A stretch of DNA of 32,000 nucleotides from assembly GCF_000010065.1 (NCBI RefSeq), contig NC_006576.1, forward strand, positions 360,001-392,000. Reading direction: 5' to 3'. The notes beneath the pieces were generated by a model. It made no database searches. It was not told where the DNA came from and saw nothing but the letters and a program-made list of their open reading frames with translations. The stretch's first letter is position 1, and the number at the start of each line of letters is the position of its first letter. This DNA is from Synechococcus elongatus PCC 6301 (lineage in GTDB: Bacteria; Cyanobacteriota; Cyanobacteriia; Synechococcales; Synechococcaceae). The position numbers and the translations under genes are program-made. Below, one piece after another: positions 2,859-27,824 of the stretch.

Positions 2859-5048
2859 ATGTTCGATCTCTCGAAGTTTCTGCCGGTCATCACTCCACTC
2901 ATGATCGATACCGCCAAAACCTTGTGCCCTTACTGCGGTGTGGGCTGTGGACTGGAAGCTGTCCCCCCGGCACAACCCGGCCGAGCCACGGTCCGCGATC
3001 GCGAGGGCACACCGATCTGGCAGATTCGGGGCGATCGGCAACATCCCTCCAGTCAGGGAATGGTCTGCGTCAAAGGCGCAACGGTGGCGGAATCTGTCAG
3101 CAAAAGCCGGCTGAAATATCCAATGTTCCGGGCCAGTCTCGACGACCCATTCACGGAAATTAGCTGGGACGAAGCCCTCGACCGCCTCTGCGATCGCATC
3201 CAACAGACGCAGGCCGACTACGGCAAAGACGGTATCTGCTTCTACGGCTCCGGCCAGTTTCAAACTGAAGACTACTACATCGCCCAAAAGCTGGTGAAAG
3301 GTTGCCTCGGCACCAATAATTTCGATACCAACTCGCGACTCTGCATGTCCTCAGCGGTGTCGGCTTACAGTCTTTGCCTGGGTAGCGATGGCCCACCCGC
3401 CTGCTACGAAGATCTTGATCTAGCAGACTGCCTGCTGATCGTGGGCAGCAATACAGCGGAGTGCCACCCGATTCTCTTCAATCGCTATCGCAAGCGCCAT
3501 AAACAGGGTGGCACCAACCTGATCGTCGTCGATCCACGCTGCACACCAACGGCTGAGGTTGCCGATCTCCACCTGGCACTCAAGCCCGGCAGCGATGTCG
3601 CCCTGCTCAACGGCTTGGGCTGGCTGCTCTACCAAATGGGCTATGTCAAAAAGGACTTCATTGCCAACCAGACCGAAGGCTTTGAAGACTGGCTAGCGAT
3701 CATTGAGGACTATCCACCCCAGCGCACAGCAGAACTGACGGGACTGGCAGTCGCTGAGCTGGTGCGAGCCGCCGACTTGATTGCCTCAGCTCAGCGCTGG
3801 CTCTCGCTTTGGTCGATGGGCGTCAATCAGTCGATTCAGGGTACGGCGAAGGCGACCAGCCTGATCAACCTGCACCTCTTGACCCGCCAAATTGGTTTAC
3901 CAGGCTGTGGTCCTTTTTCCTTAACTGGCCGACCAAACGCCATGGGCGGTCGTGAAACGGGTGGGCTCGCGCATCTGTTACCGGGCTATCGCAAGGTCAT
4001 CGATCCCCAGCATCGTGCTGATGTGGAGACGATTTGGGGACTGCCGATGGGCAGTATTTCGCCTCAACCCGGTCGTACCGCTTGGCAGATGATCGAAGGC
4101 CTGGAGCAGGGTGCAGTGGGCTTCCTTTGGGTAGCAGCGACCAATCCAGCAGTCAGTCTGCCGGATGTGAAACGGGCTCAAGCAGCCCTGAAGCGATCGC
4201 CTTTTACCGTTCTCCAAGACGCCTACCATCCCACCGAAACCACAACCTACGCCCACCTCCTTTTACCCGCTGCTCAATGGAGCGAGAAAACGGGCACGAT
4301 GACCAACTCCGAGCGGCGAGTGACGCTTTGCCAAGCCTTTCGCCAGCCCCCCGGGGAAGCCCGAGCCGATTGGCAAATTTTTGCGGAAGTGGGACGGCGC
4401 TTAGGGTTTGCCTTTGACTACACCGATGCGGCTGCCGTCTTTGCAGAGTATGTGCAGGTGACAGCGGGTCGGCTCTGTGACCTCAGCGGCCTGAGTCATG
4501 AGTTGCTGGCGCAGGCGGGACCTCAACAGTGGCCATTTCCAGCGGGAGCAGAACCGACGACCGAAAGTAAGCGCCTCTACACGAAACATCACTTTGCCTA
4601 TGCCGACGGTCGTGCCCGTTTCCAGCCTTTTCATCACTTGGGAGTAGCAGAGCCACCCGACGATCGCTATCCCTTGGTGCTGACAGTGGGACGACTTTAC
4701 GGCCACTGGCATACTCAAACCCGGACCGGCCGCATCGACAAAATCAACAAGCTGCATCCCAGCGCATTTGTCGAAATTCATCCCCGCGATGCCGATCGCT
4801 ACAACATCAGTGAAGGGCAAGCTGTTGTGATTCGATCGCGACGCGGAGAAGGCTGTTTTCCGGCCAAGGTGACAACGGCAATTTCACCAGGAGTATTGTT
4901 TGTGCCGATGCATTGGGGGGCACTATGGGGCGATCGCACGGAGGCTAATGCCCTCACCCATCCGGCAGCTTGTCCCATTTCTGGCGAACCAGAACTCAAA
5001 GCTTGTGCTGTGCAGATTGAAGCAGCGAGTTCAACCTTCACAATCTAA
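2859..5048 (+). CDS. narB: Ferredoxin-dependent assimilatory nitrate reductase (molybdopterin oxidoreductase family)
   Basis: 729 aa. The N-terminal Fe-S cysteine cluster is CPYCGVGCG...C. The body is MopB-type and the C-terminal part is molybdopterin-dinucleotide-binding-like. It sits directly after nrtCD. Confidence 0.9.
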
Positions 5049-5138
5049 GGGTGTGCAATCAAGAGCCTCACTAAAGCGATCGCTAAGTTGATCTCTAGGC
5101 AGAGCCTTATGGCAGCAATTCTGGCTGACTGTTCTCGC

Positions 5139-5465
5139 CTAAAGGAATGGAATCCGTAAGAGAAATACCCCCCAAGCGATGGTAGCGCCGTAGTAGCAGT
5201 AGCTGGTCATCCTAGCGAAGCTAGAAAGTCTACGATGTCTTTTGACTAAAAAAAGAGTGGGAATTAGCAGCAGAGCTGAAGGCAGATAGGCAGCTATAAA
5301 AATGATAGTTCCAATACCCAGATAGCCTCCTTGGCTGACAAGTAGGAGGTGATAGAATCCCCAAACAATCGCACCAATAATCACAATTATTTGGCAGGCT
5401 GATATCACCTCAAACAAGTTATTAGAGGAGGAGGGATGATCTGTCGGTGGTTTAGAAGCGCTCAT
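5139..5465 (-). CDS. Hypothetical small membrane protein (about 3 predicted TM segments)
   Basis: 108-aa ORF with hydrophobic stretches (IIVIIGAIVWGFYHLLLV, IIFIAAYLPSALLLIPTLFLV). It is AT-rich and has no HIP1. I recognise no family. Confidence 0.5.
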   Translation of the reverse strand: MSASKPPTDHPSSSNNLFEVISACQIIVIIGAIVWGFYHLLLVSQGGYLGIGTIIFIAAYLPSALLLIPTLFLVKRHRRLSSFARMTSYCYYGATIAWGVFLLRIPFL

Positions 5466-5562
5466 GCTGTTCCCAGAGAGACAGGCTTAATCGCATATTG
5501 TCTCTAGATAAAACAAAAGACAATTAATGAGTCAATTAAGGTATCAACTTTTGCGATCGCTG

Positions 5563-6087
5563 CTAAATCAGGCCCGGAATAAAAGCTTTAACGCGAGTTT
5601 GGTAGTCGACGTAGTCGGAATAACGATCGCGCAACCATCGTTCTTCTAGCCGCGCCTTCCCAATCAGAACCCCAATTAAGGCGAGGCTGACTGCTGCCTG
5701 ACTAAGACTCCAAAGCGCGATCGCCCAACCAAGACTGCCTATCATCAAGCCGCTGTAGAGCGGATGACGAATCCAAGCATAGATCCCAGTTTGCACCAGG
5801 GTTGATTCTGCATGGGGTGCCGGAAGCGGCGAGAGGCTATCTCCCAAAAAGCGCAGACCGGCAATCGCCAGTCCAGCTCCCATGATCAGGAAGGGAATTG
5901 CGATCGCCCATCGCCAAACAATCCAATCTGCTGCGATCGGGATGGCCCAGCGGGGAACCAAAACGAGGGCCACCAACAAGACGAGTTGCGCCAGAAGCCA
6001 ATACTCACCGCGATCGCCCCGATACCAATGCTTCCAGTCAAAGCCCCAACGCTGAAACAAAGCCATAGCCGCCTCCGAGCTCTGCAC
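5563..6087 (-). CDS. Isoprenylcysteine carboxyl methyltransferase (ICMT)/phospholipid methyltransferase-family membrane protein
   Basis: 174 aa, multi-TM, with a C-terminal motif GIYAWIRHPLYSG...EERWL typical of the ICMT/PEMT family. Confidence 0.7.
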   Translation of the reverse strand: MQSSEAAMALFQRWGFDWKHWYRGDRGEYWLLAQLVLLVALVLVPRWAIPIAADWIVWRWAIAIPFLIMGAGLAIAGLRFLGDSLSPLPAPHAESTLVQTGIYAWIRHPLYSGLMIGSLGWAIALWSLSQAAVSLALIGVLIGKARLEERWLRDRYSDYVDYQTRVKAFIPGLI

Positions 6088-6331
6088 ATACTATGACTAA
6101 TCTGAGAGCGATCGCAGACTGTAATGTTCAGAAATTTTTCTTAAAATTAGCCATTAGAAATTTTGCAAGTGAATCCATCAAAATCAATAACAAATATCAC
6201 TTAAAACGATTACTTTAATTGTCTTTTTGCGACAACAAAAATCCTTTTGATTGATCCAAGAAGTTGACTTTTTAGGAGGTACTTGAAATGATGAAGTGAA
6301 GCATCTGCCATAGACTGACAGGTTGGGCGCC

Positions 6332-7015
6332 ATGAAGTGGCATTTTCTTAGACTTTCCCTGGAACGCCCCTACAATCAGCTATTGTTTATTCTTGTTGCG
6401 ATAATCTCTGTTGGGATTATCTTCAAGATCAACCCAATTGCAACAATTGCTGTTTCTTTTATCCTGTTTAGCAGCTTGCTACAAGTCATCAAAATTGCAC
6501 GCCCCTCACTGCAGACATCCAAGTCCCTACTTAGGTTTTCCCTATTAACTTTCAGCATTATTGTCATCAATGAATTAGGAGTTCTACAACCCTTTCCCGG
6601 TCTTAGTGAAATTTTTCGATTTGTTACCCTTATCGCCCTATCAGTTTTTTTGAGTCTTGTAATTATACTGCTGATCAAAACTCTAATGCATGAGTCGCAA
6701 GTCACTGCCGACCTCGTCAAAGGAGGTATTTGTATCTATTTTTTAGTTGCAATTCTTTGGTCGCTCCTCTATGAGGCGATCGCTGTTTTTGATCCTCTCG
6801 CTTTCTTGATATTGCCGGAGCACAAAGACAATAATCCTTATGTTTACTTCAGCTTTATCACGCTGACCAGCACAGGCTTCGGGGATATTTTGCCAATCAA
6901 TCCGGTTGCAAAACTGCTAGCTAGCTTTGAAGCAATGTTTGGGCAACTCTATCTGGCGATCGTGATTGCTCGTTTGGTCAGTCTTTACAGCAGTCAAAAT
7001 TCGTCGGACTCCTAG
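6332..7015 (+). CDS. Ion-channel family protein with a K+-channel-like pore (TxTSTGFGD)
   Basis: Multi-TM protein. The pore-helix/selectivity-filter-like segment YFSFITLTSTGFGDILP is followed by a final TM. ATG at 6332 is preferred over TTG at 6323. The gene is AT-rich. Confidence 0.7.
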   Translation: MKWHFLRLSLERPYNQLLFILVAIISVGIIFKINPIATIAVSFILFSSLLQVIKIARPSLQTSKSLLRFSLLTFSIIVINELGVLQPFPGLSEIFRFVTLIALSVFLSLVIILLIKTLMHESQVTADLVKGGICIYFLVAILWSLLYEAIAVFDPLAFLILPEHKDNNPYVYFSFITLTSTGFGDILPINPVAKLLASFEAMFGQLYLAIVIARLVSLYSSQNSSDS

Positions 7016-7315
7016 GATCCACGCAGCTGCATGGCCTTAGAACTGGGGCGAATGTGAATAGCCTCTCGTGCCAACGGTTCTGCGATCGCACATTTAATCA
7101 GTCTCTCTTCACCTCAGCCCCGTCTTTTGGCCGCCAGATCACTGGACCCTCAGGATGCGATCGCGCTACTGCATCCCGTGTTTGTGAAGACTGGCTGCAG
7201 CCTCAGTCAGCTTTCAGAAAGTTACAAAACTCAACACTTGGGCGCTAATTTCTTAACGATACAAGGGGAGTGCGATAATACATCCTTGCAGGATAACCAT
7301 TGCAGCGTCGGTTTT

Positions 7316-7855
7316 ATGACTCAAGTATCGGGAGCTTCAGACGTCCCCAGCATGGGGCGTCGGCAGTTCATGAACCTGCTGACCTTCGGCTCAGTCACAG
7401 GTGTCGCCCTGGGTGCCCTTTACCCCGTGGTGAACTACTTTATTCCGCCTTCCAGTGGTGGTAGCGGTGGCGGTGTCGCAGCCAAGGATGCGCTTGGCAA
7501 TGATGTCGTCCTCTCTAAGTTTTTGGCTGATCACAATGTGGGCGATCGCACCTTGGTACAAGGTCTGAAGGGTGACCCCACCTATCTTGTGGTCGAAAGT
7601 AGCGAAGCGATCGGCGACTACGGCATCAACGCAGTTTGCACCCACTTGGGCTGCGTGGTGCCTTGGAACGCTAGCGAAAACAAATTTAAGTGCCCCTGCC
7701 ACGGTTCGCAGTACGACGCAACCGGCAAAGTGGTCCGTGGTCCCGCACCGCTGTCCTTGGCGCTGGCTCACGTTTCCGTGACCGACGACAAAGTCTTCCT
7801 CTCGCCCTGGACCGAAACCGACTTCCGCACCGGCGACAACCCCTGGTGGGCTTAA
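7316..7855 (+). CDS. petC: Cytochrome b6f Rieske iron-sulfur subunit
   Basis: Rieske boxes CTHLGCVV and CPCHGSQY. The N-terminus has a twin-Arg-like signal and TM ([13 protein letters not shown]). The internal ATG at 7316 gives the usual 179 aa. The ORF-track start at 7127 adds a non-conserved extension. Confidence 0.9.
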
Positions 7856-16995: not shown

Positions 16996-17880
16996 TCAAA
17001 GAGCCGCGAGTACGACTTTGGGCTTGCACAGTCCTGCCGCGATCGCGCCGATTCCTAAGAACTGGCCGTTGAGATCATAGACACGGACTGGAGCTGCATC
17101 GGGAAGAACACTGTCAGGCACGGGCATCGCTTGTCCTTGTCGCCAGCGATCGCTGGTTTCGGCACTCAGTTGAACTTTGGCTAAATGCTGCAATGGCAAA
17201 TCCAAAGCCAAGAGCGGCACCGCTGCTCCATCGAGCAGTTCAGTCAGCGGCGTGCTCTGGTTCAGATCAAAGCCACTACTCGCAGTACGACGCAACTCTG
17301 CTAGGGTGCCACCGACCCCCAGCACGGCTCCGAGGTCTCGCGCTAGAGAACGGATGTAAGTGCCAGCACCACAGTGGATTTCGACAGATAATTCGGCTTG
17401 ACTGCCCGATCGCCACTGGAGAATTCGAATTGACTGAATTTCTACGGTGCGCCAAGGGAGCTCCGTGGGGGCTTCCCCGCGCCGAGCAAGCTGATAGAGT
17501 CGCTGCCCTTGCACTTGTACGGCACTAACCTGGGGCGGTTGCTGCTGAATGTGGCCGAGGAATTGGGGTAGCGCCGCCTCGATTGCCTCTCGCGACAAGT
17601 GGCTGGTATCGGCTTCTGCCAGGCGATCGCCCGTCAGATCGTCCGTACTGGTCTGCAACCCGAAGCGAATGGTGCCGACGTAGGTTTTGCCACTGGGAAG
17701 ATAGGGTAGGAGCCGCGTGGCTCGTCCCACCGCGATCGGCAGAACACCTGTGACTGCCGGATCAAGCGTGCCACCATGGCCGATACGCCGCTCCCGTAAC
17801 AGACGCCGTAACTTGGCGACACAGTCATGGGAAGTCCAGCCCGCTGGCTTATCGAGGTTGACAAACCCTTCCGATGACAT
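16996..17880 (-). CDS. truB: tRNA pseudouridine(55) synthase
   Basis: N-terminus GFVNLDKPAGWTSHD and the catalytic motif HGGTLDPAVTGVLPI. Confidence 0.9.
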   Translation of the reverse strand: MSSEGFVNLDKPAGWTSHDCVAKLRRLLRERRIGHGGTLDPAVTGVLPIAVGRATRLLPYLPSGKTYVGTIRFGLQTSTDDLTGDRLAEADTSHLSREAIEAALPQFLGHIQQQPPQVSAVQVQGQRLYQLARRGEAPTELPWRTVEIQSIRILQWRSGSQAELSVEIHCGAGTYIRSLARDLGAVLGVGGTLAELRRTASSGFDLNQSTPLTELLDGAAVPLLALDLPLQHLAKVQLSAETSDRWRQGQAMPVPDSVLPDAAPVRVYDLNGQFLGIGAIAAGLCKPKVVLAAL

Positions 17881-17972
17881 AGCAAGACCTCTGTCTTAAG
17901 ACGGTAGACTGCATCACAGCCACAAGCGATCGTCGATAGTAGAATTGGCTCTTCTGAGTTACGGTTGCGCAG

Positions 17973-18350
17973 ATGGCCAATATCCTCGTTGTTGATGACA
18001 GCAGTCTCTACCTAGAACTTGCCCGTCAAGCCTTAGTTGATCATGGCCACCAGGTTGAACTTGCCAACAACGGTCAAGAAGCCTTGCAATCCGTCGCCAA
18101 CAAGAAGCCTGTCTTGATTCTGCTCGATATCGTTATGCCAGAAATGAATGGCTACGACGTACTGCGATCGCTCAAGAAATCAGCTGAAAACGCTACGATT
18201 CCTGTCATTCTTTGCTCGACCAAAGGCGAGGATTTTGACAAGTATTGGGGGCTCAAACAGGGAGCCAATGCCTACTTGACTAAGCCCTATGAACCAACCG
18301 AACTATTGCTATTGGTGCAGGAACAACTGACTGCAGCCCGCAATTCTTGA
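17973..18350 (+). CDS. Stand-alone CheY-like response regulator receiver
   Basis: 125 aa with DD at residues 8-9, phospho-acceptor D52 (LLDIVMP), S82/T83 and K104-P. There is no output domain. Confidence 0.85.
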   Translation: MANILVVDDSSLYLELARQALVDHGHQVELANNGQEALQSVANKKPVLILLDIVMPEMNGYDVLRSLKKSAENATIPVILCSTKGEDFDKYWGLKQGANAYLTKPYEPTELLLLVQEQLTAARNS

Positions 18351-18420
18351 AATTTGGCGGGGCGATCGTGACCTCTGACCTGACAAAATCAATTGATCAG
18401 ACGCGATCGCAGACAAAGTG

Positions 18421-18453
18421 AAGGGGATCAGGACAATAATGTCCGATCCCCTT
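18421..18453. terminator. Putative bidirectional intrinsic terminator between the convergent receiver gene and rpmA
   Basis: AAGGGGATC-A-GGACA / ATAA loop / TGTCC-GATCCCCTT forms 14 bp with one bulge. T-containing tracts flank it on both strands (TGTTCT on +, CACTTTGTCT on -). Confidence 0.6.
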
Positions 18454-18471
18454 TGTTCTAGTTCGCTGGAA

Positions 18472-18738
18472 TTAAGCAGCTTCGCCAGCAGGGTAAACGC
18501 TGACTTTCTTGCCGCCTTTGCCTTTGCGCTCAAAGGTGACGACGCCGTCGATCAGTGCAAACAGGGTGTCGTCACCGCCGCGACCAACATTGACACCCGG
18601 ATGGAACTTAGTACCCCGTTGACGAACGATGATGCTGCCCGAGCGCACCACTTCGCCACCGAATTTTTTGACGCCGAGGCGCTGAGCGTTAGAGTCACGC
18701 CCGTTACGAGTACTACCCGTACCTTTCTTATGAGCCAT
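18472..18738 (-). CDS. rpmA: 50S ribosomal protein L27
   Basis: [24 protein letters not shown]... is the canonical L27 N-terminus. Confidence 0.95.
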
Positions 18739-18772
18739 GGTCTTGGAATCCTCTGGTTAGAACGACGAAAAA

Positions 18773-19156
18773 CTAGCCAGCAGCGTCAATGTCCGCTTCT
18801 GATTTCGGTAAGTCAGCCGCGTTAGCCGTCAAGACTTTACCGCCTACAGTAATCGACTCCACCAAAACCCGGGTCAAATCTTGGCGATGGCCTTGTTTCT
18901 TACGGGTTTTTTTCTTGGGCGTCATCTTGTAGACAGTGACTTTGCGACCCCGAGGGTGACTCAGAACCGTCACTTGCACTGTGGCACCGGCCACGTAGGG
19001 CTGTCCAATCTGCGGTGCGCCTTCGTCTTGAACGAGCAGGACTTTGTCGAGGGTGAGCGACTGATCCAAGTCTGCGTCGAGGCGATCGAGATCGTAGAAC
19101 CGACCGGGTTCAACCCAGAGTTGCTTATCGCTTGCTTCGATGATTGCGTAAGCCAT
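18773..19156 (-). CDS. rplU: 50S ribosomal protein L21
   Basis: [26 protein letters not shown]... is L21-like. It lies directly upstream of rpmA, the conserved rplU-rpmA pair. Confidence 0.92.
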
Positions 19157-19393
19157 GCATTTTCAGCCGTAGAGGTGGCTACACCTGCCGAGGGCAGAGA
19201 GAGCACTTGAAGAAACCTGTTCCGAGCCGCCTTTTAAACAACAGCCCTCTATCATCTCAGAAACTTTTGAGAACTGTCAAACTGTGGACAAAGCGATCGC
19301 GGCCTCATGAGCTGCAGTGCTAGGCTAAATTAAATTTTTCCTTTGTCCAGAGATTAATCTGTCTGCAGACTCAGTCCTGACAGGAGCGACTGC

Positions 19394-20248
19394 GTGCTCT
19401 CGCAAATTGCAATCTGCATTTGGGTGGAATCGACGGCAATTTTGCAGGATTGCCAGCGGGCGCTGTCGGCCGATCGCTATCAACTCCAAGTCTGTGAGTC
19501 TGGCGAAATGCTCTTGGAGTATGCCCAAACCCATCGTGACCAAATCGACTGCCTGATTTTAGTGGCAGCCAATCCCAGCTTCAGGGCAGTTGTTCAGCAG
19601 CTCTGCTTTGAGGGAGTGGTGGTACCAGCGATTGTCGTAGGCGATCGCGACAGTGAGGATCCCGATGAACCAGCCAAAGAACAGCTCTATCACAGCGCTG
19701 AACTGCACCTCGGTATCCATCAGCTCGAGCAATTGCCCTACCAAGTTGATGCTGCACTGGCTGAATTTCTGCGCTTAGCCCCGGTCGAGGCCATGGCCGA
19801 CCACATCATGCTGATGGGGGCCAACCACGATCCCGAGCTATCGAGCCAGCAGCGGGACCTCGCTCAGCGACTACAAGAGCGCCTAGGCTATCTCGGGGTC
19901 TACTACAAGCGTGATCCCGATCGCTTTCTGCGCAACCTACCCGCCTACGAAAGCCAAAAGCTGCACCAAGCGATGCAGACTAGCTATCGTGAAATCGTTT
20001 TGAGCTATTTTTCGCCGAATAGCAACCTCAACCAGAGCATTGACAACTTCGTCAACATGGCTTTCTTTGCCGATGTTCCAGTCACCAAAGTGGTAGAAAT
20101 TCACATGGAGCTGATGGACGAGTTTGCCAAGAAGCTCCGCGTAGAGGGACGTTCAGAGGACATTTTGCTGGATTATCGGCTGACTTTAATTGATGTAATT
20201 GCACATCTTTGTGAGATGTATCGACGGTCTATCCCACGAGAAACCTGA
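19394..20248 (+). CDS. kaiA: Circadian clock protein KaiA
   Basis: 284 aa with a GTG start. The sequence matches my recollection of S. elongatus KaiA throughout (MLSQIAICIWVESTAILQDCQRAL...EMYRRSIPRET). Confidence 0.95.
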   Translation: MLSQIAICIWVESTAILQDCQRALSADRYQLQVCESGEMLLEYAQTHRDQIDCLILVAANPSFRAVVQQLCFEGVVVPAIVVGDRDSEDPDEPAKEQLYHSAELHLGIHQLEQLPYQVDAALAEFLRLAPVEAMADHIMLMGANHDPELSSQQRDLAQRLQERLGYLGVYYKRDPDRFLRNLPAYESQKLHQAMQTSYREIVLSYFSPNSNLNQSIDNFVNMAFFADVPVTKVVEIHMELMDEFAKKLRVEGRSEDILLDYRLTLIDVIAHLCEMYRRSIPRET

Positions 20249-20337
20249 AAAGGTAAAGGAGGTCTTAAGCTCGGCTCAATTTCTCTCTTTATCCTGTTAG
20301 ATGGTTTGATTGCTGTTGCTACCCCGTTGATCTGCGT
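20249..20337 (+). promoter_or_regulatory. kaiA-kaiB intergenic region expected to carry kaiBC promoter/5' leader elements
   Basis: It is established that kaiBC is transcribed as a dicistron from its own promoter upstream of kaiB. I could not pinpoint a -10/-35 or TSS by eye, and part of the promoter may lie inside the kaiA 3' end. Confidence 0.4.
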
Positions 20338-20646
20338 ATGAGCCCTCGTAAAACCTACATTCTCAAGCTCTACGTCGCCGGCAATACTCCAAACTCAGTC
20401 CGTGCCCTCAAAACGCTCAAGAACATTCTCGAAGTTGAATTTCAAGGTGTTTATGCTCTAAAGGTGATCGATGTTCTCAAAAATCCTCAGTTGGCAGAAG
20501 AGGATAAAATCCTAGCGACGCCAACCCTCGCCAAGGTTCTACCACTGCCTGTCCGACGGATTATTGGTGATTTATCCGACCGTGAGAAAGTTTTGATTGG
20601 CCTTGATTTACTCTACGGCGAACTTCAAGATTCCGACGACTTCTAA
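20338..20646 (+). CDS. kaiB: Circadian clock protein KaiB
   Basis: 102 aa, [32 protein letters not shown]..., thioredoxin-like KaiB family. Confidence 0.95.
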
Positions 20647-20695
20647 CTGTCGTTAACTGCTTTGTTGGTACTACCTGACTTCACCCTCTTTTAAG

Positions 20696-22255
20696 ATGAC
20701 TTCCGCTGAGATGACTAGCCCTAATAATAATTCTGAGCACCAAGCCATCGCTAAGATGCGCACGATGATTGAAGGCTTTGATGATATTAGTCATGGCGGT
20801 CTTCCAATCGGGCGATCGACCCTCGTTAGTGGTACTTCAGGAACCGGCAAGACCCTTTTTTCTATTCAATTTCTCTATAACGGTATTATCGAGTTTGATG
20901 AGCCTGGGGTTTTCGTTACTTTCGAAGAAACCCCGCAAGATATCATTAAAAACGCCCGTAGTTTTGGCTGGGATTTAGCCAAGCTGGTCGATGAGGGCAA
21001 ACTATTTATTCTTGATGCTTCACCCGATCCAGAAGGTCAAGAGGTTGTTGGCGGCTTCGATCTCTCTGCTCTGATTGAGCGGATTAATTATGCAATTCAA
21101 AAGTATCGAGCGCGGCGGGTTTCAATTGACTCGGTCACGTCCGTTTTCCAGCAATATGATGCCTCTTCTGTGGTTCGCCGCGAACTCTTTCGGTTGGTAG
21201 CTCGCCTAAAACAAATTGGGGCAACTACGGTCATGACCACCGAGCGTATCGAGGAATATGGCCCGATCGCTCGTTACGGTGTTGAGGAATTTGTCTCCGA
21301 TAACGTCGTGATTCTCCGCAACGTTTTGGAAGGGGAGCGCCGTCGCCGCACCCTCGAAATCCTCAAGCTACGTGGCACCAGCCACATGAAAGGGGAATAT
21401 CCGTTCACGATTACGGATCATGGCATCAATATCTTCCCGCTCGGGGCAATGCGCCTTACGCAGCGATCGTCGAACGTGCGTGTTTCATCTGGTGTCGTCC
21501 GACTCGATGAAATGTGTGGTGGGGGCTTCTTTAAGGACTCAATCATTCTGGCAACTGGCGCTACAGGCACTGGTAAAACTCTGTTAGTTAGCCGTTTCGT
21601 TGAGAATGCTTGTGCTAACAAAGAGCGGGCGATTCTGTTCGCTTATGAAGAGTCACGAGCTCAGCTGCTCCGCAATGCCTATTCATGGGGAATGGACTTT
21701 GAGGAGATGGAGCGCCAAAACCTCCTCAAAATTGTTTGCGCCTATCCTGAATCTGCAGGTCTTGAAGACCATTTGCAGATTATTAAGTCGGAGATCAATG
21801 ACTTTAAGCCAGCTCGTATTGCAATCGACTCCCTCTCTGCTTTGGCGCGGGGCGTTAGCAACAATGCCTTCCGCCAATTTGTAATTGGTGTCACTGGCTA
21901 CGCGAAACAAGAAGAAATCACGGGACTATTCACAAATACCAGTGATCAATTTATGGGAGCGCATTCGATTACTGACTCCCATATCTCAACAATTACGGAT
22001 ACGATTATCTTGCTCCAATACGTCGAGATTCGTGGCGAAATGTCCCGCGCCATTAACGTCTTCAAGATGCGCGGATCTTGGCATGACAAAGCAATCCGCG
22101 AATTCATGATCAGCGACAAAGGGCCGGACATCAAGGATTCTTTCCGGAACTTTGAGCGGATTATTTCAGGTTCGCCAACACGGATTACCGTCGATGAGAA
22201 AAGCGAACTCTCGCGAATTGTGCGCGGCGTTCAAGAAAAAGGGCCGGAGAGCTAG
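20696..22255 (+). CDS. kaiC: Circadian clock protein KaiC (duplicated RecA/DnaB-like ATPase)
   Basis: 519 aa. Two Walker A motifs: GTSGTGKT (aa 46-53, nt 20831-20854) and GATGTGKT (aa 288-295, nt 21557-21580). Phosphosites S431/T432 lie in HISTITD (nt 21986-21991). Confidence 0.97.
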   Translation: MTSAEMTSPNNNSEHQAIAKMRTMIEGFDDISHGGLPIGRSTLVSGTSGTGKTLFSIQFLYNGIIEFDEPGVFVTFEETPQDIIKNARSFGWDLAKLVDEGKLFILDASPDPEGQEVVGGFDLSALIERINYAIQKYRARRVSIDSVTSVFQQYDASSVVRRELFRLVARLKQIGATTVMTTERIEEYGPIARYGVEEFVSDNVVILRNVLEGERRRRTLEILKLRGTSHMKGEYPFTITDHGINIFPLGAMRLTQRSSNVRVSSGVVRLDEMCGGGFFKDSIILATGATGTGKTLLVSRFVENACANKERAILFAYEESRAQLLRNAYSWGMDFEEMERQNLLKIVCAYPESAGLEDHLQIIKSEINDFKPARIAIDSLSALARGVSNNAFRQFVIGVTGYAKQEEITGLFTNTSDQFMGAHSITDSHISTITDTIILLQYVEIRGEMSRAINVFKMRGSWHDKAIREFMISDKGPDIKDSFRNFERIISGSPTRITVDEKSELSRIVRGVQEKGPES

Positions 22256-23259
22256 CCAGCGATCGCGCTTAGGTATTCTTGTCTCAGCTCAGTCGTCAAC
22301 CCGAGCACCGAGAAAGCTAAGGCCTCGCGATAAAGCCGTTGTGCTGGATTCTGTAGCGAATTCGCCGCACCAGCGGCACTGAAAACAGCGGCTTGGGTAC
22401 AACGATGCATCAGGGTCAGGGCTTGAATGCGTAGACTCAGCGCCTCTCTGAAATCAGCTTGGCCCAAGGCTTGAGCGATCGCCTGTTCGAGTTGCCCAAG
22501 TTGGGCAGTTAGAACTTCTCGGCAATCTGCATCGCGCGCAGTCAGCAGCCCTAGACAGGCACGTGCTAACCCACAGGCGAAGGCCGAGGGACTGAGCGTC
22601 CCTTGGCGATCGCGATCGCGGATCCAAGTGGCGGGCAGGATGGTCACCAAGCGATCGCGGGGCAGGGTGATGATTAGTTGCGCTGCAACCGTTCCGGTTG
22701 TACCCATCGCGGCCAGTGCGAGCGGTGAGACCTTCCACTCAGGCGCTTGGGCCGGGATCAACGCAAACGGTGTTTGCCCCTCTGGCAATGGCGCAGCAAT
22801 CAGAAACTCTTCAAAAAAACCCCAACCGGTCAGCCAAGGCAGTTCTCCCGACAGAACGATGTGATCCTTATGCCAACTGGCTTGCAGGGGTGAGGGCGAT
22901 CGACGCAGATGGGAAAAGCCAATCCCCACCGTAGGACGGCCGTAGCTGAGGCCAGAGAGTCGGCGATCGCTGGGTTGATGCTTGCTCAGAAAAGAGGCTG
23001 CACTCTGGTGCTGGGTTTGTAAAAAAGCCAAGGCACCGGAAGCACTCGCGATCGCCGCTTGAGCCTGCCATACCTCAACCGGTGAGAGCGCTAAACCTTC
23101 CTCACAGGCAGGGACAGAAAACCCGAGCCAACCGCGATCGCCCATTGCCTGCAACACCTGAGCCAGCACTACCGGATCCTGATCGATCCGCTCGGCTTGG
23201 GGCTGCACCTCAGCGGTCAGCCAAGCTTGCAAATCTTGCAGGTCGAATCGAGGAGCCAT
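22252..23259 (-). CDS. Acyl-CoA dehydrogenase-like family protein
   Basis: 335 aa. The N-terminal region (ERIDQDP..L..L...GWLG) and the overall helical/beta/helical layout resemble the ACAD family, but this is a weak family call. Its stop codon overlaps the kaiC stop within GCTAGC. Confidence 0.6.
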   Translation of the reverse strand: MAPRFDLQDLQAWLTAEVQPQAERIDQDPVVLAQVLQAMGDRGWLGFSVPACEEGLALSPVEVWQAQAAIASASGALAFLQTQHQSAASFLSKHQPSDRRLSGLSYGRPTVGIGFSHLRRSPSPLQASWHKDHIVLSGELPWLTGWGFFEEFLIAAPLPEGQTPFALIPAQAPEWKVSPLALAAMGTTGTVAAQLIITLPRDRLVTILPATWIRDRDRQGTLSPSAFACGLARACLGLLTARDADCREVLTAQLGQLEQAIAQALGQADFREALSLRIQALTLMHRCTQAAVFSAAGAANSLQNPAQRLYREALAFSVLGLTTELRQEYLSAIAG

Positions 23260-23284
23260 ATCAGCGGGCGATCGCGATTAAACC

Positions 23285-23788
23285 TTAGGCAGCGAGTGCT
23301 GCTTCGATCGCTTGAATCAGGCTGGCATCGTTGGGGGCAACGCCACTCTTGAAGCGGGCTAAGACAGTGCCATCCTTGCCGACCAAAAATTTCTCAAAGT
23401 TCCAAGCTACGTCACCGGCAGGGTCCGTTTGCGTCAGCGCTGCGTAAAGAGGATGTTGATCCGCGCCTTTGGCATGGACTTTATCGAACAGTTCGAAGCT
23501 GACATCGAAACGAGTGGAGCAGAAGGTTTTGATCTCCTCATTGCTGCCCGGTTCCTGGGCCCCAAAGTCATTGCAGGGGAACGCCAAGACCTGCAGACCG
23601 CGATCGCGGTATTGGCGATAGAGGGCTTCCAAGCCGCTGTACTGCGAGGTGTAACCGCAGTAGGAGGCCACGTTGACAATCAACAACACCTGACCGGCGT
23701 AGTCGCTGAGGCTTTTCGCTGCACCGTCGATGGTTGTGACGGCGATGTCAGTGACTTGAGGAGCCATGGATACGTTACGAATCTTCAT
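23285..23788 (-). CDS. Glutathione peroxidase-family protein (Cys-type)
   Basis: Motifs LLIVNVASYCGYT, LAFPCNDFGAQEPG and WNFEKFLV are GPx hallmarks. An alternative start lies at the internal Met (MAPQV, nt 23767). Confidence 0.88.
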   Translation of the reverse strand: MKIRNVSMAPQVTDIAVTTIDGAAKSLSDYAGQVLLIVNVASYCGYTSQYSGLEALYRQYRDRGLQVLAFPCNDFGAQEPGSNEEIKTFCSTRFDVSFELFDKVHAKGADQHPLYAALTQTDPAGDVAWNFEKFLVGKDGTVLARFKSGVAPNDASLIQAIEAALAA

Positions 23789-23918
23789 GGTCTATTCTCG
23801 CAGGCACTCGGGCTGAGCTGCAGAGCCGCTCTGAAATCTCAAGCTTCGGGCGAGCTGGAAGCCAAGCAAAGGCGATCGGGTTTTTAGCGAGCGGGGAGTC
23901 CCGTGATGCTTTGGGATT

Positions 23919-24335
23919 TTAGGAAAGGAGAGGGTTAGCGAGTTCCCAGTCCACCACCCGCAAACCCGTGATGCGAACAAACTCTCGCGTGTTGTAGGTG
24001 ACGAGGGTGGTATCGAAAGCACGAGCCGTGGCTGCAATCAGGAGATCATTTGGGCCAATGGGTTTGCCTTGGGCAGCGGGGTCAGCGCGAATCAGTCCGG
24101 CTTCTTCGGCACAGCGATCGGTGAAGGGGAGACTTTGCAGAGGAGCAAAGAAGCGATCGAGGAGCTGTAGGTTCGCTTCGACGTTTTGACTACGGCGTGC
24201 CCCGTAGAGCAGTTCAGATTTGACGATGCTGCAGAGGGCAATGTCTGCGGGCGATTGTTGCCGAAAGTGCTGCAGTAACTGGGGATGGCGGCGATTAAGG
24301 AGCTGGATGCAAGCGTTGGTGTCGAGCAGAAACAT
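23919..24335 (-). CDS. vapC: PIN-domain toxin, VapC family
   Basis: N-terminus MFLLDTNACIQLL and C-terminus DLLIAATA...LVTYNTREF are typical of PIN/VapC. It begins 3 nt after the upstream antitoxin gene. Confidence 0.88.
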   Translation of the reverse strand: MFLLDTNACIQLLNRRHPQLLQHFRQQSPADIALCSIVKSELLYGARRSQNVEANLQLLDRFFAPLQSLPFTDRCAEEAGLIRADPAAQGKPIGPNDLLIAATARAFDTTLVTYNTREFVRITGLRVVDWELANPLLS

Positions 24336-24338
24336 TGT

Positions 24339-24563
24339 CTATTGCCAGTCCAGGCGCTCTTCCCAGGCATCAGATGTGGGGCGTTCCGGTGGGTCGCCTT
24401 GCCACTGTCTAAAGATTTCGAAGTAGCCCTCAGGCCAGTCGTGGTTGAGGTCGCGCTTGACGAGGAGCGCCAGATATTTAGAGAGAGACAGCTGAGCGGA
24501 TTCTGCCTTGGCTTGTAGTCGCTTGGCGATGTCTTCGGAGACATAGCAATGGAGCTGAGGCAT
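24339..24563 (-). CDS. Ribbon-helix-helix (CopG-like) antitoxin partner of VapC
   Basis: 74 aa. The beta-strand LHCYVSEDI is followed by two helices (AKRLQAKAES / LSKYLALLVKRDL). It sits immediately upstream of vapC. Confidence 0.75.
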   Translation of the reverse strand: MPQLHCYVSEDIAKRLQAKAESAQLSLSKYLALLVKRDLNHDWPEGYFEIFRQWQGDPPERPTSDAWEERLDWQ

Positions 24564-24631
24564 AAGGAATAGGTTGTTTATATGTAGAGTATGTGTCTCT
24601 CAGACTAGCACTGCTAGGGTGGGAACAATAG

Positions 24632-24715
24632 GATAGCGATCGCCTCTTACCTAAGCTGATATCTGATGAAATTCGGATCAAAGATGCCGAGAAAGTAGCT
24701 GAGGAGGTGTTGTAG
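24632..24715 (+). pseudogene. Remnant resembling the C-terminus of a type I R-M specificity subunit (HsdS)
   Basis: In-frame translation gives DSDRLLPKLISDEIRIKDAEKVAEEVL*, bounded upstream by a TAG at 24629. It resembles the conserved ...LLPKLISGEIRV.DAE... HsdS tail. Its TAG overlaps the GTG start of the next gene (TAGTG). Confidence 0.55.
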
Positions 24716-24975
24716 TGCCAGAGATTAGCCGCTTCTTTGGAATCATTATCACTATGTACTACAACGACCACGCGCCGCCCCACTTCCATGTTCGCTATGG
24801 TCAACAGAAAGCCATCATTTCTATTGATACTCTTGCCGTTTTAGAAGGAAGCCTTAAACCCCGTACCCTTGGGCTCGTGATTGAATGGGCAGCTCAGCAC
24901 CAAGCCGAACTAAGGAATGACTGGCAGCTTGCCCGCCAAAACGCTCCCCTAGAAGCGATCGAACCACTGGAGTAA
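24715..24975 (+). CDS. DUF4160-family protein (cassette 1)
   Basis: 86 aa, MPEISRFFGIIITMYYNDHAPPHFHVRYG... is the DUF4160 signature. GTG start with the SD GAGGAGG 7 nt upstream. Confidence 0.8.
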   Translation: MPEISRFFGIIITMYYNDHAPPHFHVRYGQQKAIISIDTLAVLEGSLKPRTLGLVIEWAAQHQAELRNDWQLARQNAPLEAIEPLE

Positions 24976-24979
24976 GACC

Positions 24980-25324
24980 ATGCTCAAAGATGTCATTGCT
25001 GTAAAAGCGATCGAAGATTATCAACTTCAGATCACCTTTGAAGACCATAAAGAAGGAATCGTTAATCTAGCCGAAATCATCGAGTTTAGCGGCATCTTCG
25101 AGCCGCTCAAGAATCCTACTTACTTTGCTACTGTCCAAGTTGATCCAGATCTCGGGACTCTTTGCTGGGACAACGGTGCAGATATTGATCCGGTGGTTCT
25201 GTATGCCAAAGTCACGAACCCAGAAACATCCCTATCTGAGATCCGTGATCGGCTTTTACCTCAGCTAATGTCTAGCGGAAGTGAGCGTAAGGATGCTGAG
25301 GAAGCAACTGGGGAGAGCTTGTAG
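24980..25324 (+). CDS. DUF2442-family protein (cassette 1) with a C-terminal extension that reads through an HsdS-tail-like remnant
   Basis: The core (aa 1 to about 80: ..YQLQITFEDHKEGIVNL...LCWDNGADIDPVVLY) matches DUF2442. The tail EIRDRLLPQLMSSGSERKDAEEATGESL is homologous to the remnant at 24632-24715. Confidence 0.78.
   Translation: MLKDVIAVKAIEDYQLQITFEDHKEGIVNLAEIIEFSGIFEPLKNPTYFATVQVDPDLGTLCWDNGADIDPVVLYAKVTNPETSLSEIRDRLLPQLMSSGSERKDAEEATGESL
25238..25324 (+). pseudogene. Second HsdS-C-terminus-like remnant, fused in frame to the cassette-1 DUF2442 ORF
   Basis: The 25-aa stretch DRLLPQLMSSGSERKDAEEATGESL* is identical at 14/25 positions to DRLLPKLISDEIRIKDAEKVAEEVL*. The 11-mer TTGTAGTGCCA is identical at both junctions (24710-24720 and 25319-25329). 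Confidence 0.5.
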
Positions 25325-25572
25325 TGCCAACTGTTCTTTTTTTGCGAGGTTGGCGGTTCCATTTCTATTCCAATGAAGGAACGGAACCAATCCTCATTCA
25401 CGCTCAAAGAGGAGAGGCTGAATGTAAATACTGGCTTAATCCAGAAATCTATGACATCCGAGAAGCCTATGCTTACAATATGAGTAAACGAGATACAAGA
25501 GAGGTACGCAAAATTATCCTGCAAAACTTTGATGAAATCGTAGAAGCTTGGACTAACTATTTCGGAGAGTAA
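25324..25572 (+). CDS. DUF4160-family protein (cassette 2)
   Basis: 82 aa, MPTVLFLRGWRFHFYSNEGTEPILIHAQRGEAECKYWL... is DUF4160-like. Its GTG start shares a G with the preceding TAG. Confidence 0.75.
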   Translation: MPTVLFLRGWRFHFYSNEGTEPILIHAQRGEAECKYWLNPEIYDIREAYAYNMSKRDTREVRKIILQNFDEIVEAWTNYFGE

Positions 25573-25574
25573 AT

Positions 25575-25835
25575 ATGAATCCACATCATATCGTTCAAAA
25601 CCTTAGCTTTGACCAAGAAAACATGATTCTCAGTGTTGATGGGTCAACGTACTCTATCCCAATTAGCCAAGCTTCAAAACGGCTCTCTCAAGCAACAGAA
25701 GCAGAACGCAAGCTTTATCAAATTTCTCCCTCTGGCTATGGCATTCATTGGTTAGCAATTGACGAAGACCTATCCATTGATGGCTTGATTCGCTTGGCAA
25801 ATAGTCTGCCAGTCCAGAATGCCTCCAGATTCTAA
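25575..25835 (+). CDS. DUF2442-family protein (cassette 2)
   Basis: 86 aa with the DUF2442 hallmark ...ISPSGYGIHWLAIDEDLSIDGLI. It starts 2 nt after the DUF4160 stop. Confidence 0.75.
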   Translation: MNPHHIVQNLSFDQENMILSVDGSTYSIPISQASKRLSQATEAERKLYQISPSGYGIHWLAIDEDLSIDGLIRLANSLPVQNASRF

Positions 25836-25926
25836 CCATGCATGGCTTTGAGGAAATGCCCCGTGGGACTGGCCTCAGACAAAGCCCCTGAGTTAGCGAT
25901 CGCCAGTTTTGGCTAAGTGCTATTGT

Positions 25927-25946
25927 TGTACAACAAGCTGTACAAC
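25927..25946. promoter_or_regulatory. Putative YefM/YefM-YoeB operator: two TGTACA cores 12 bp apart
   Basis: TGTACAAC lies at 25927-25934 and again at 25939-25946, ending 10 nt upstream of the yefM ATG (25957). The E. coli yefM-yoeB operator also uses two TGTACA-core palindromes with 12-bp centre spacing. Confidence 0.6.
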
Positions 25947-25956
25947 TCCTCGGCTC

Positions 25957-26211
25957 ATGAAAGTTGTTTCCTTCAGTGACGCCAGAAAAAATCTCAAGAC
26001 TGTCTTGGATGAAGTCGTCAACGACGCTGACTACACGATCATTACTCGCCGCAATGCCGAGGAGGTCGTGGTCATGTCCCTCGACTCCTTCAATAGCCTG
26101 ATCGAAACCTTCCACCTGCTCAAATCCCCTGCCAATGCTGCTCACCTACAACGCTCGATCGCTCAGTACCAGCAAGGTCAAACAGTCGAGCGAAATCTAT
26201 TAGATGCGTAA
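25957..26211 (+). CDS. yefM: YefM/Phd-family antitoxin
   Basis: MKVVSFSDARKNLKTVLDEVVNDADYTIITRRNAEEVVVMSLDSFNSLIETFHLLKSP.N is classic YefM. The internal ATG at 25957 is preferred to the ORF-track start at 25909. Confidence 0.9.
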   Translation: MKVVSFSDARKNLKTVLDEVVNDADYTIITRRNAEEVVVMSLDSFNSLIETFHLLKSPANAAHLQRSIAQYQQGQTVERNLLDA

Positions 26212-26467
26212 GCTGGCTTGGACAAACGAGGCTTGGGAAGATTACCTGTATTGGCAAGGGCAGGACAAGAAGACCTTAAATCGCATCAACAAGCTCATTA
26301 CCGAAACCTTGCGATCGCCCTTTGAGGGGATTGGTAAGCCAGAAGCGCTCAGGGAGAACCTGACTGGGTTTTGGTCACGCCGCATTGACGACACCAATCG
26401 CTTAGTTTACGCAGTAGCAGATGACTACCTGACCATTATTTCCTGTCGCTACCACTACAGCGATTAA
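26204..26467 (+). CDS. yoeB: YoeB-family mRNA interferase toxin
   Basis: MRKLAWTNEAWEDYLYWQGQDKKTLNRINKLI...FWSRRIDDTNRLVY...CRYHY matches YoeB. It overlaps yefM by 8 nt (ATGCGTAA). Confidence 0.9.
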   Translation: MRKLAWTNEAWEDYLYWQGQDKKTLNRINKLITETLRSPFEGIGKPEALRENLTGFWSRRIDDTNRLVYAVADDYLTIISCRYHYSD

Positions 26468-26593
26468 TACCTCCTCAGTCTTTTCAACAATATGGGTACT
26501 GGCTGAGTAATCACAGTTGTGCCAAGGGCAGCAAGTCTGAACAGCAATGTGATGTCTGTCAGCACAAGTAAGGTATGAAATTTATAGACAGAC

Positions 26594-26827
26594 TCATTGA
26601 TATTTTTGGCTGAGATAGTCGCTGTAGTCTGCCTGTAATTCCTGATCGCTAACGGTTGTTCCTAAGCGTTTGGCAATTCCCCGCAATCCAATCAGCGTTC
26701 CTGGCGGAATCACTGACTGGGGTTGGGGGCTTTGTTGCTGCAGAAACTCCGCAAAGTGCAAAACCTCCGTCACCTTTTCTTCAGGAAGCGTTTGGATCAG
26801 TTGGTAGAGTTTCTCGGCAGCAGTCAT
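26594..26827 (-). CDS. DUF2281-like antitoxin-type protein, apparently orphan
   Basis: From the internal Met the sequence reads MTAAEKLYQLIQTLPEEKVTEVLHFAEFLQQQ..., a DUF2281-like N-terminus. No intact partner ORF lies downstream. Confidence 0.55.
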   Translation of the reverse strand: MTAAEKLYQLIQTLPEEKVTEVLHFAEFLQQQSPQPQSVIPPGTLIGLRGIAKRLGTTVSDQELQADYSDYLSQKYQ

Positions 26828-26865
26828 GACTGAAGCCGTTGGATCTGTCTTTATATCGTGGCGAA

Positions 26866-27069
26866 TCATGGCTGGGTCTGGGGGATCCAAGTGATGCGCT
26901 GGAAGCGGGCAGGGTTGCCAGCGGTATAACGCACCGTGTTTTGAATGTTGCGATGGCCTAAGTAGTCCTGAATATCGCGAGTCGGTAGACCCTGTTCAGC
27001 CAAGGCATAGCCGCAGGACTGGCGGAACATGTGCGGGTGAACCTGAATTTTGAAAGCTTTAGCGATCGC
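26866..27069 (-). pseudogene. 3' fragment of a FimB/FimE-like tyrosine recombinase (phage integrase family)
   Basis: My manual reverse-strand translation gives AIAKAFKIQVHPHMFRQSCGYALAEQGLPTRDIQDYLGHRNIQNTVRYTAGNPARFQRITWIPQTQP*. This contains box II (HxxR ... LGH ... catalytic Y). An in-frame TAA at 27070-27072 cuts off everything N-terminal. Confidence 0.8.
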
Positions 27070-27102
27070 TTAGACTGGTTGGCCTCTAGTTGTTTGCTTG
27101 CC

Positions 27103-27345
27103 ATGCAAACTGTTGGCGCGTTTGAAGCCAAGACCCATCTCTCCAGCCTGCTCGACTCCGTCTGTCAGGGGGAGCAGATCGTGATTACCCGCCACGGTTG
27201 CCCGATCGCCCGTTTGGTGCCAGCAGAAGGTCCTGATCAGTCTGCGGTCCAAGCCGCGATCGCCCGTCTTCGGCAGCTCAGCCAAGGTCAAACCCTCAAC
27301 GGAATTACGGTGCAGGAACTCCGTGATACTGGGCGGCGGGCATGA
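27103..27345 (+). CDS. Phd/YefM-type antitoxin paired with VapC
   Basis: MQTVGAFEAKTHLSSLLDSVCQGEQIVITRHGCPIARLVP is a prevent-host-death family N-terminus. Its stop overlaps the vapC start (ATGA). Confidence 0.82.
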   Translation: MQTVGAFEAKTHLSSLLDSVCQGEQIVITRHGCPIARLVPAEGPDQSAVQAAIARLRQLSQGQTLNGITVQELRDTGRRA

Positions 27346-27755
27346 GCTTTGTGTTGGATGTCTCACTGGCTTGTGCTTGGTGTTTTGCGGATGAGGCAAC
27401 ACCGGAATCTTGGGCTTTATTGGAGCAGTTGCAACAATCTCCAGCAGTTGTCCCTGCACTTTGGCTCTGGGAAGTTGGGCATGTCTTGGTGCAAGCAGAG
27501 CGCCGGCAAAGGATTAGCGCCGCTGCGAGTCGTGAGTTTTTATCGCTGCTAGAGATGTTGCCGATTGAGGTAGAACCCGCTGCTGTCGGTACCGTTTGGC
27601 ATGACACATTGGCGATCGCTTGCAGTCAACAGCTGACTGCTTATGACGCAGCTTATTTGGAGCTGGCGATGCGGCGGGGATTCGCTCTGGCAACTTGCGA
27701 TCGCGCCTTGATCAGTGCTGCGGAAGCCGTGGGAGTTACGTTACTGCCGACCTAA
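27342..27755 (+). CDS. vapC: PIN-domain toxin, VapC family (second copy)
   Basis: N-terminus MSFVLDVSLACAWCFADE and C-terminus TAYDAAYLELAMRRGFALATCD are typical of the PIN family paired with Phd-type antitoxins. Confidence 0.85.
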   Translation: MSFVLDVSLACAWCFADEATPESWALLEQLQQSPAVVPALWLWEVGHVLVQAERRQRISAAASREFLSLLEMLPIEVEPAAVGTVWHDTLAIACSQQLTAYDAAYLELAMRRGFALATCDRALISAAEAVGVTLLPT

Positions 27756-27824
27756 AAACTGCAGATATAGACTTGGACCTCCGATTTACGACCGCCATCG
27801 GCAAAATGGTAGGTTGCAGTTGCC

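Follow-up and report, generated by a model that had tools for sequence, protein, structure and literature searches.

The window analysed here comprises 32,000 nucleotides (nt) of the original chromosome record for Synechococcus elongatus PCC 6301; it contains the circadian clock genes kaiA, kaiB and kaiC. All coordinates refer to positions in this window. The system is real, complete and already known. The region is almost certainly the canonical kaiA/kaiBC circadian clock locus of S. elongatus as deposited in the Sanger-era PCC 6301 record, with an alanine instead of a threonine at residue 133 of KaiA (T133A) that most probably reflects a base-calling error. No evidence contradicting the identification of the locus was met in the analysis. 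As the preliminary description of the region had recognized, the locus is not novel: its sequence is the reference clock sequence apart from one KaiA residue.

The list of open reading frames (ORFs), inspected over positions 18000 to 24000, places kaiA, kaiB and kaiC on the + strand. The preliminary description had proposed three co-oriented genes for proteins of 284, 102 and 519 amino acids (aa), and the ORF list reproduced both the coordinates and the lengths exactly. kaiA (19394-20248) begins with GTG, whereas kaiB (20338-20646) and kaiC (20696-22255) begin with ATG. A GTG start has also been described for the 284-aa kaiA elsewhere (PMC7205874). The three genes are adjacent and co-oriented, with spacers of 89 nt between kaiA and kaiB and 49 nt between kaiB and kaiC, the latter two being near enough for one operon. 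kaiB and kaiC are co-transcribed, with kaiB as the first gene of the kaiBC operon.

The Kai proteins were compared with all PDB chain sequences using phmmer, and the best matches were the Kai proteins themselves, in line with the proposed gene names. KaiA was identical in 283 of its 284 residues to 5n8y_M, 5c5e_A, 4g86 and 1r8j (E = 5e-188). The protein consists of an N-terminal pseudo-receiver and a C-terminal four-helix domain for KaiC binding and dimerisation, and it matched PF21714 (KaiA_N, residues 6-130) and PF07688 (KaiA, residues 162-283), both far above the cut-offs. KaiB, a fold-switching thioredoxin-like protein, was identical over all 102 residues to 4kso_C and to the KaiB of 5n8y (E = 5e-62). 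It matched PF07689 with 102.4 bits (cut-off 27), and residues G88 and D90 are present.

KaiC is a double-domain (CI and CII) P-loop ATPase, an autokinase and autophosphatase. All 519 residues were identical to those of 1u9i_A and of seven further entries, including 2gbl, 3dvl, 5n8y and 7dxq (E = 0). The internal duplication of the ATPase, which had been noticed from the DNA, was borne out by PF06745, which matched in two stretches (419 bits, cut-off 26.6), and by the alignment of CI with CII (25% identity, E = 3e-17). Both Walker A motifs translated as previously placed, GTSGTGKT at 20831-20854 (+ strand) in CI (G46-T53, with K52) and GATGTGKT at 21557-21580 (+) in CII (G288-T295, with K294). 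The phosphosites S431 and T432 were likewise read by direct translation at the expected positions, 21986-21991, in the phosphorylation segment that starts with T426 (21971-21991, +). The catalytic glutamates were read as E77/E78 in CI and E318/E319 in CII, and computing from the kaiC start at 20696 gives 20924-20929 and 21647-21652 (+) as their coordinates. The Walker B aspartates are D145 (in RVSIDS) and D378 (in RIAIDS), and further functional residues present are K52/T53, K224/R226, K294/T295, K457/R459 and E487. The segment bound by KaiA, which comprises the A-loop and the C-terminal tail (E487-S519, 22154-22252, +), was read from the sequence; its residues 500-519 are identical to the peptide that was crystallised with KaiA in 5c5e_G, and 1suy_C matches residues 488-515. 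Identity over the full 519 residues to the crystallised and biochemically characterised protein suggests that the product would act as a hexameric autokinase, autophosphatase and slow ATPase. Thus, the best matches are Kai proteins, and KaiC has both ATPase domains and both phosphosites, the features on which the preliminary description had staked the assignment beforehand.

For comparisons at the DNA level we used three long contigs that carry the exact KaiC protein, namely a PCC 7942-type run (L001), resequenced PCC 6301 (L002, CP085785.1) and UTEX 3055 (L003, CP033061). Adomako et al. 2022 (PMC9239245) describe CP085785.1 as resequenced PCC 6301. Across the entire kai locus, position 19790 alone distinguishes the window from it. 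The base is G in the window and A in all three contigs, so that KaiA codon 133 (19790-19792, +) is GCC (Ala) here, whereas every other S. elongatus record has ACC (Thr). The preliminary description had tentatively suggested that a residue near the KaiA stretch LAPVEAMADH may differ and had advised alignment to the kaiABC of PCC 7942. The suggestion was sound: residue 133 is Ala here and Thr in all S. elongatus KaiA chains of the PDB, and the alignment to PCC 7942 yielded 19790, with KaiA T133A as its consequence, as the single differing base of the locus.

KaiA with A133 (BAD78522.1, WP_011242646.1) was found on one contig, the original 2,696,255-bp PCC 6301 record, compared to 279 contigs for the T133 form (ABB57248.1 and others). 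An exact-product look-up of the A133 protein among 153 billion gene positions gave no match; the cluster look-up did find one NCBI record. Three neighbouring proteins also occur in their window versions in the original PCC 6301 record only: ribosomal protein L21 (BAD78521), a CheY-like receiver (BAD78519) and an acyl-CoA-dehydrogenase-like (ACAD-like) protein (BAD78525). These matches identify that record as the source of the window. In an alignment of 21,305 bases, 17 positions differed between the window and resequenced PCC 6301 (11077, 12412, 12413, 12415, 13894, 16106, 16373, 16396, 18112, 18921, 19128, 19790, 22769, 24079, 25394, 26064 and 31596), and the identical set was obtained with the PCC 7942-type contig. 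Fourteen of these differences are in genes, and 12 of them are non-synonymous, including two Leu-to-Pro changes, G10D and K79T in L21, and D47V in a PDLILLD-type motif of the receiver. The three remaining differences are bunched in 4 nt of intergenic DNA just downstream of tRNA-Val. Genuine divergence looks different: in comparison to UTEX 3055, kaiC has seven synonymous and no non-synonymous differences, and kaiB has none.

Real polymorphism accounts for the pattern of the 17 sites less well than errors in the old record do. More than 1,000 apparent single-nucleotide polymorphisms and insertions or deletions (indels) have been reported for the PCC 6301 sequence as published, and most of them are put down to sequencing errors (PMC9239245). 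Because the differences are record-specific and rich in non-synonymous changes, and because of this report, we regard T133A as probably a base-calling error of the old record and not a property of the organism. Two points limit this interpretation. In the part of the PMC9239245 supplementary text available to us there is no kaiA entry, and the site is neither listed nor dismissed there. Moreover, the resequenced culture came from the 1988 Golden lab archive and is not the same culture as the one originally sequenced, which leaves a slight chance of a clone-specific allele.

A133 could accordingly be a genuine allele of the originally sequenced PCC 6301 subculture, possibly with a small effect on the period. 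The deposited record BAD78522.1 does encode A133, an A to G transition is a plausible spontaneous mutation, and a deep mutational scan indicates that KaiA changes near the pseudo-receiver hinge can lengthen the period (PMC13142295). Even so, we consider a genuine allele very unlikely, in view of the ratio of one contig to 279 and of the company that A133 keeps, record-specific differences that strike essential or conserved residues and that the literature blames on sequencing errors (PMC9239245). Marginally less likely still is the more specific proposal that the stock sequenced in 2004-2007 truly carried A133 and that this allele had a slight influence on the hinge dynamics of KaiA, and hence on period or entrainment. 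If this were true, A133 would be a natural variant of the clock that distinguishes "legacy" laboratory strains. Residue 133 is located between the two Pfam domains of KaiA. Column 133 is hypervariable in 80 KaiA homologues of other cyanobacteria (P 30, S 11, Q 9, R 8, N 5 and others), and hardly any variation is seen at F125, L126 and L128, just upstream of it. Because the residue is interdomain and the column hypervariable, a phenotype is unlikely even for a real allele, and T133A would probably be neutral. A base-calling error remains our preferred explanation.

Other alternatives concern the locus as a whole. KaiC-like single or double ATPase domains are widespread outside clocks, and the archaeal proteins PH0186, PH0284 and SSO2452 were among the weaker KaiC matches. 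Apart from this, nothing specific suggests a Kai system that is reduced or has diverged, for instance a KaiBC hourglass timer or a KaiC-like ATPase with no role in a clock, in place of a self-sustained three-protein oscillator. Such a system is ruled out by sequence identity, and we give it next to no chance: a full-length KaiA is present and equals the reference in 283 of 284 residues, KaiB and KaiC match, in every residue, those used for the oscillator structures, which were crystallised and imaged as the KaiABC complex, and the A-loop and tail, S431/T432 and both catalytic sites of KaiC are intact. For proteins that are identical (KaiB, KaiC) or 283/284 identical (KaiA) to those encoded here, a self-sustained, temperature-compensated rhythm of about 24 h has been described both in vivo and after reconstitution in vitro (PMC13142295, PMC7205874).

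The composition of the canonical clock locus could be taken as a sign of horizontal acquisition. The G+C fraction (GC) is 0.46 for kaiB and 0.49 for kaiC, compared to 0.55 for the whole window. The HIP1 sequence (GCGATCGC) occurs 87 times in the window versus 1.3 times expected, and the longest gap without HIP1 (19641-22259, 2,618 nt) takes in the greater part of kaiA along with the complete kaiB and kaiC genes. We rejected the idea that kaiBC is a horizontally acquired island and hold it to be highly improbable, since the gap stands out only marginally (p about 0.05 for random placement), the neighbouring receiver gene is equally GC-poor (0.48), and no mobility genes directly flank the kai locus. 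In addition, the kaiABC order in 79 of 80 loci of other species, together with identities of about 88% for KaiB and about 82% for KaiC, is easier to reconcile with strongly constrained vertical inheritance than with a recent transfer.

Since the encoded proteins are the reference proteins apart from one residue in the KaiA linker, the established clock mechanism can be assigned by sequence identity and not by analogy. KaiC would assemble into a hexamer with two ATPase rings, one stacked on the other. During the day, KaiA would be expected to bind the A-loop and tail of CII, leading to ordered autophosphorylation of KaiC on T432 and then on S431. The phosphorylated state would be relayed to CI, the slow ATPase of which would let fold-switched KaiB bind. 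KaiB would in turn sequester KaiA, upon which KaiC would dephosphorylate and the cycle of about 24 h would restart. On the output side, SasA and CikA would set the phosphorylation of RpaA. Phosphorylated RpaA (RpaA~P) would bind the sequence TAAA-N7-TTAA just downstream of kaiA and recruit RNA polymerase to the kaiBC promoter (PkaiBC) at dusk, and the protein oscillator should thereby be enclosed in a transcription-translation loop.

The predicted RpaA~P recognition motif of PkaiBC (TAAAGGAGGTCTTAA) is located at 20254-20268 on the + strand, 6 nt past the kaiA stop codon, and matches the published motif exactly. A 2026 structural study of RpaA-dependent transcription gives TAAA-N7-TTAA as the RpaA recognition sequence of PkaiBC, with a footprint from -58 to -36, and places the -10 element and the transcription start site (TSS) 7 bp downstream of earlier assignments (PMC12916501). 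By placing the published footprint on the sequence, we infer a promoter core at 20290-20312 (+ strand). It contains two -10 candidates exactly 7 bp apart, TATCCT (20290-20295), which would be the older, and TTAGAT (20297-20302), which would be the newer assignment, and the kaiBC TSS would fall at approximately 20304-20312. No PkaiBC sequence strings or TSS coordinates were found in PMC12916501 or in the UTEX 2973 transcriptome paper. The full kaiBC promoter has been reported to overlap the kaiA ORF (PMC7205874). The 32-kb window contains two matches to TAAA-N7-TTAA versus 0.28 expected, one of them upstream of kaiB. The other exact match (25425-25439) is within a toxin-antitoxin island and may be due to chance. 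Among 80 other cyanobacteria, the exact motif shows no conservation in the spacer between kaiA and kaiB, with 2 loci containing it versus 1.5 expected.

A separate kaiA promoter must be located within the rplU-kaiA intergenic region, a gap of 237 nt (19157-19393) between the divergent genes rplU (- strand) and kaiA (+ strand). Ishiura et al. 1998 reportedly found that kaiA has its own promoter. A consensus scan of 19100-22800 did not improve on shuffled sequences, with 4 promoters versus 3.0 and 5 terminators versus 3.8. It detected neither the kaiA promoter nor PkaiBC, as expected for an activator-dependent promoter, and no + strand promoter match in the rplU-kaiA spacer. Within the region scanned, the highest-ranking sigma-70-like match is on the - strand at 19280-19251 (TTGACA, 18-nt spacer, TG-extended GATGAT, 10/12) and faces the rplU-rpmA operon. 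This site and the kaiA promoter probably share one spacer as divergent promoters. No RNA family of Rfam was matched in 17500-24000 at E <= 1.

At the other end of the locus, kaiC ends in TAG (22253-22255), and this stop codon shares bases with that of a convergent gene on the - strand (22252-22254), forming the palindrome CTAG (22252-22255). The convergent gene encodes the ACAD-like protein of 335 aa. No terminator-like hairpin was found on the + strand downstream of kaiC. Because of this and of the overlap of the stop codons, the kaiBC transcript must end inside the convergent gene.

Several observations were made in the surroundings of the locus. The gene for the stand-alone CheY-like receiver (17973-18350, 125 aa, PF00072, GC 0.48) is located two ribosomal-protein genes upstream of kaiA. 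Its V47 is specific for the old record, and all other strains have Asp at this position. Evidence tying this receiver to the clock was not found in this analysis. Downstream of a glutathione peroxidase gene, GC drops to as low as 0.44 in a stretch (23919-27760) that is densely packed with small genes of toxin-antitoxin type, namely PIN, two DUF4160/DUF2442 pairs, Phd/YefM-YoeB, DUF2281 and a second Phd-PIN pair, along with a phage-integrase fragment of 54-60 aa. UTEX 3055 differs from the window by indels in this stretch, which looks like a decayed mobile island. The lowest GC of the window is found far upstream of the kai locus, within 5000-7500 (0.41 at 6001-7000), together with a strong change in AT skew.

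The locus belongs to the most intensively studied prokaryotic clock, of which it is the reference sequence, and it offers no new biology. The sole new information is one of provenance, namely that the window derives from the old record of PCC 6301, and therefore the substitution in KaiA and those in its neighbours are most likely artefacts. This is a matter of annotation hygiene: the substitutions of the old record (among them KaiA T133A, L21 G10D and K79T, and receiver D47V) should not be taken as strain biology. UniProt and RefSeq entries that derive from this record, such as WP_011242646.1, give a KaiA sequence that is not backed by any resequenced strain.

The closest relatives of the locus are those of PCC 7942 (Synpcc7942_1218/1217/1216) and of resequenced PCC 6301 (CP085785). 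The DNA of the 2,862-nt locus is identical in both apart from one base, the A at 19790 in place of the G of the window that accounts for KaiA T133A. Neither intergenic spacer differs, and the same holds for the GTG with which kaiA starts, the RpaA motif and the overlapping stop codons of kaiC and the convergent gene. The order of the flanking genes is also the same, with the receiver gene, rpmA and rplU on one side of kaiA, kaiB and kaiC, and the genes for the ACAD-like protein and glutathione peroxidase on the other.

UTEX 3055, with a genome-wide identity of about 98.5% (PMC9239245), has KaiB and KaiC proteins identical to those of the window and the T133 form of KaiA (CP033061, L003 8699-11560). 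kaiA (except for position 19790), kaiB and both intergenic spacers of the locus are identical in DNA. UTEX 3055 differs by the seven synonymous changes in kaiC, all of them in its second half (21535-22204), by three changes in the rplU-kaiA spacer, and by the base at 19790.

A search with KaiA, run on a single genome for each species, gave 251 confirmed relatives, and gene order and identities were taken from the best 80 of them. S. elongatus itself was not among the matches, the best of which was 49% identical; the species is apparently absent from the collection or masked in it. Among the other cyanobacteria, which include Microcoleus, Crocosphaera, Moorena and Leptolyngbya, the co-oriented order kaiA-kaiB-kaiC was present in 79 of 80 loci, and in the remaining locus kaiA and kaiB only were detected. 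The median identity to the proteins of the window was 45% for KaiA, 88% for KaiB and 82% for KaiC.

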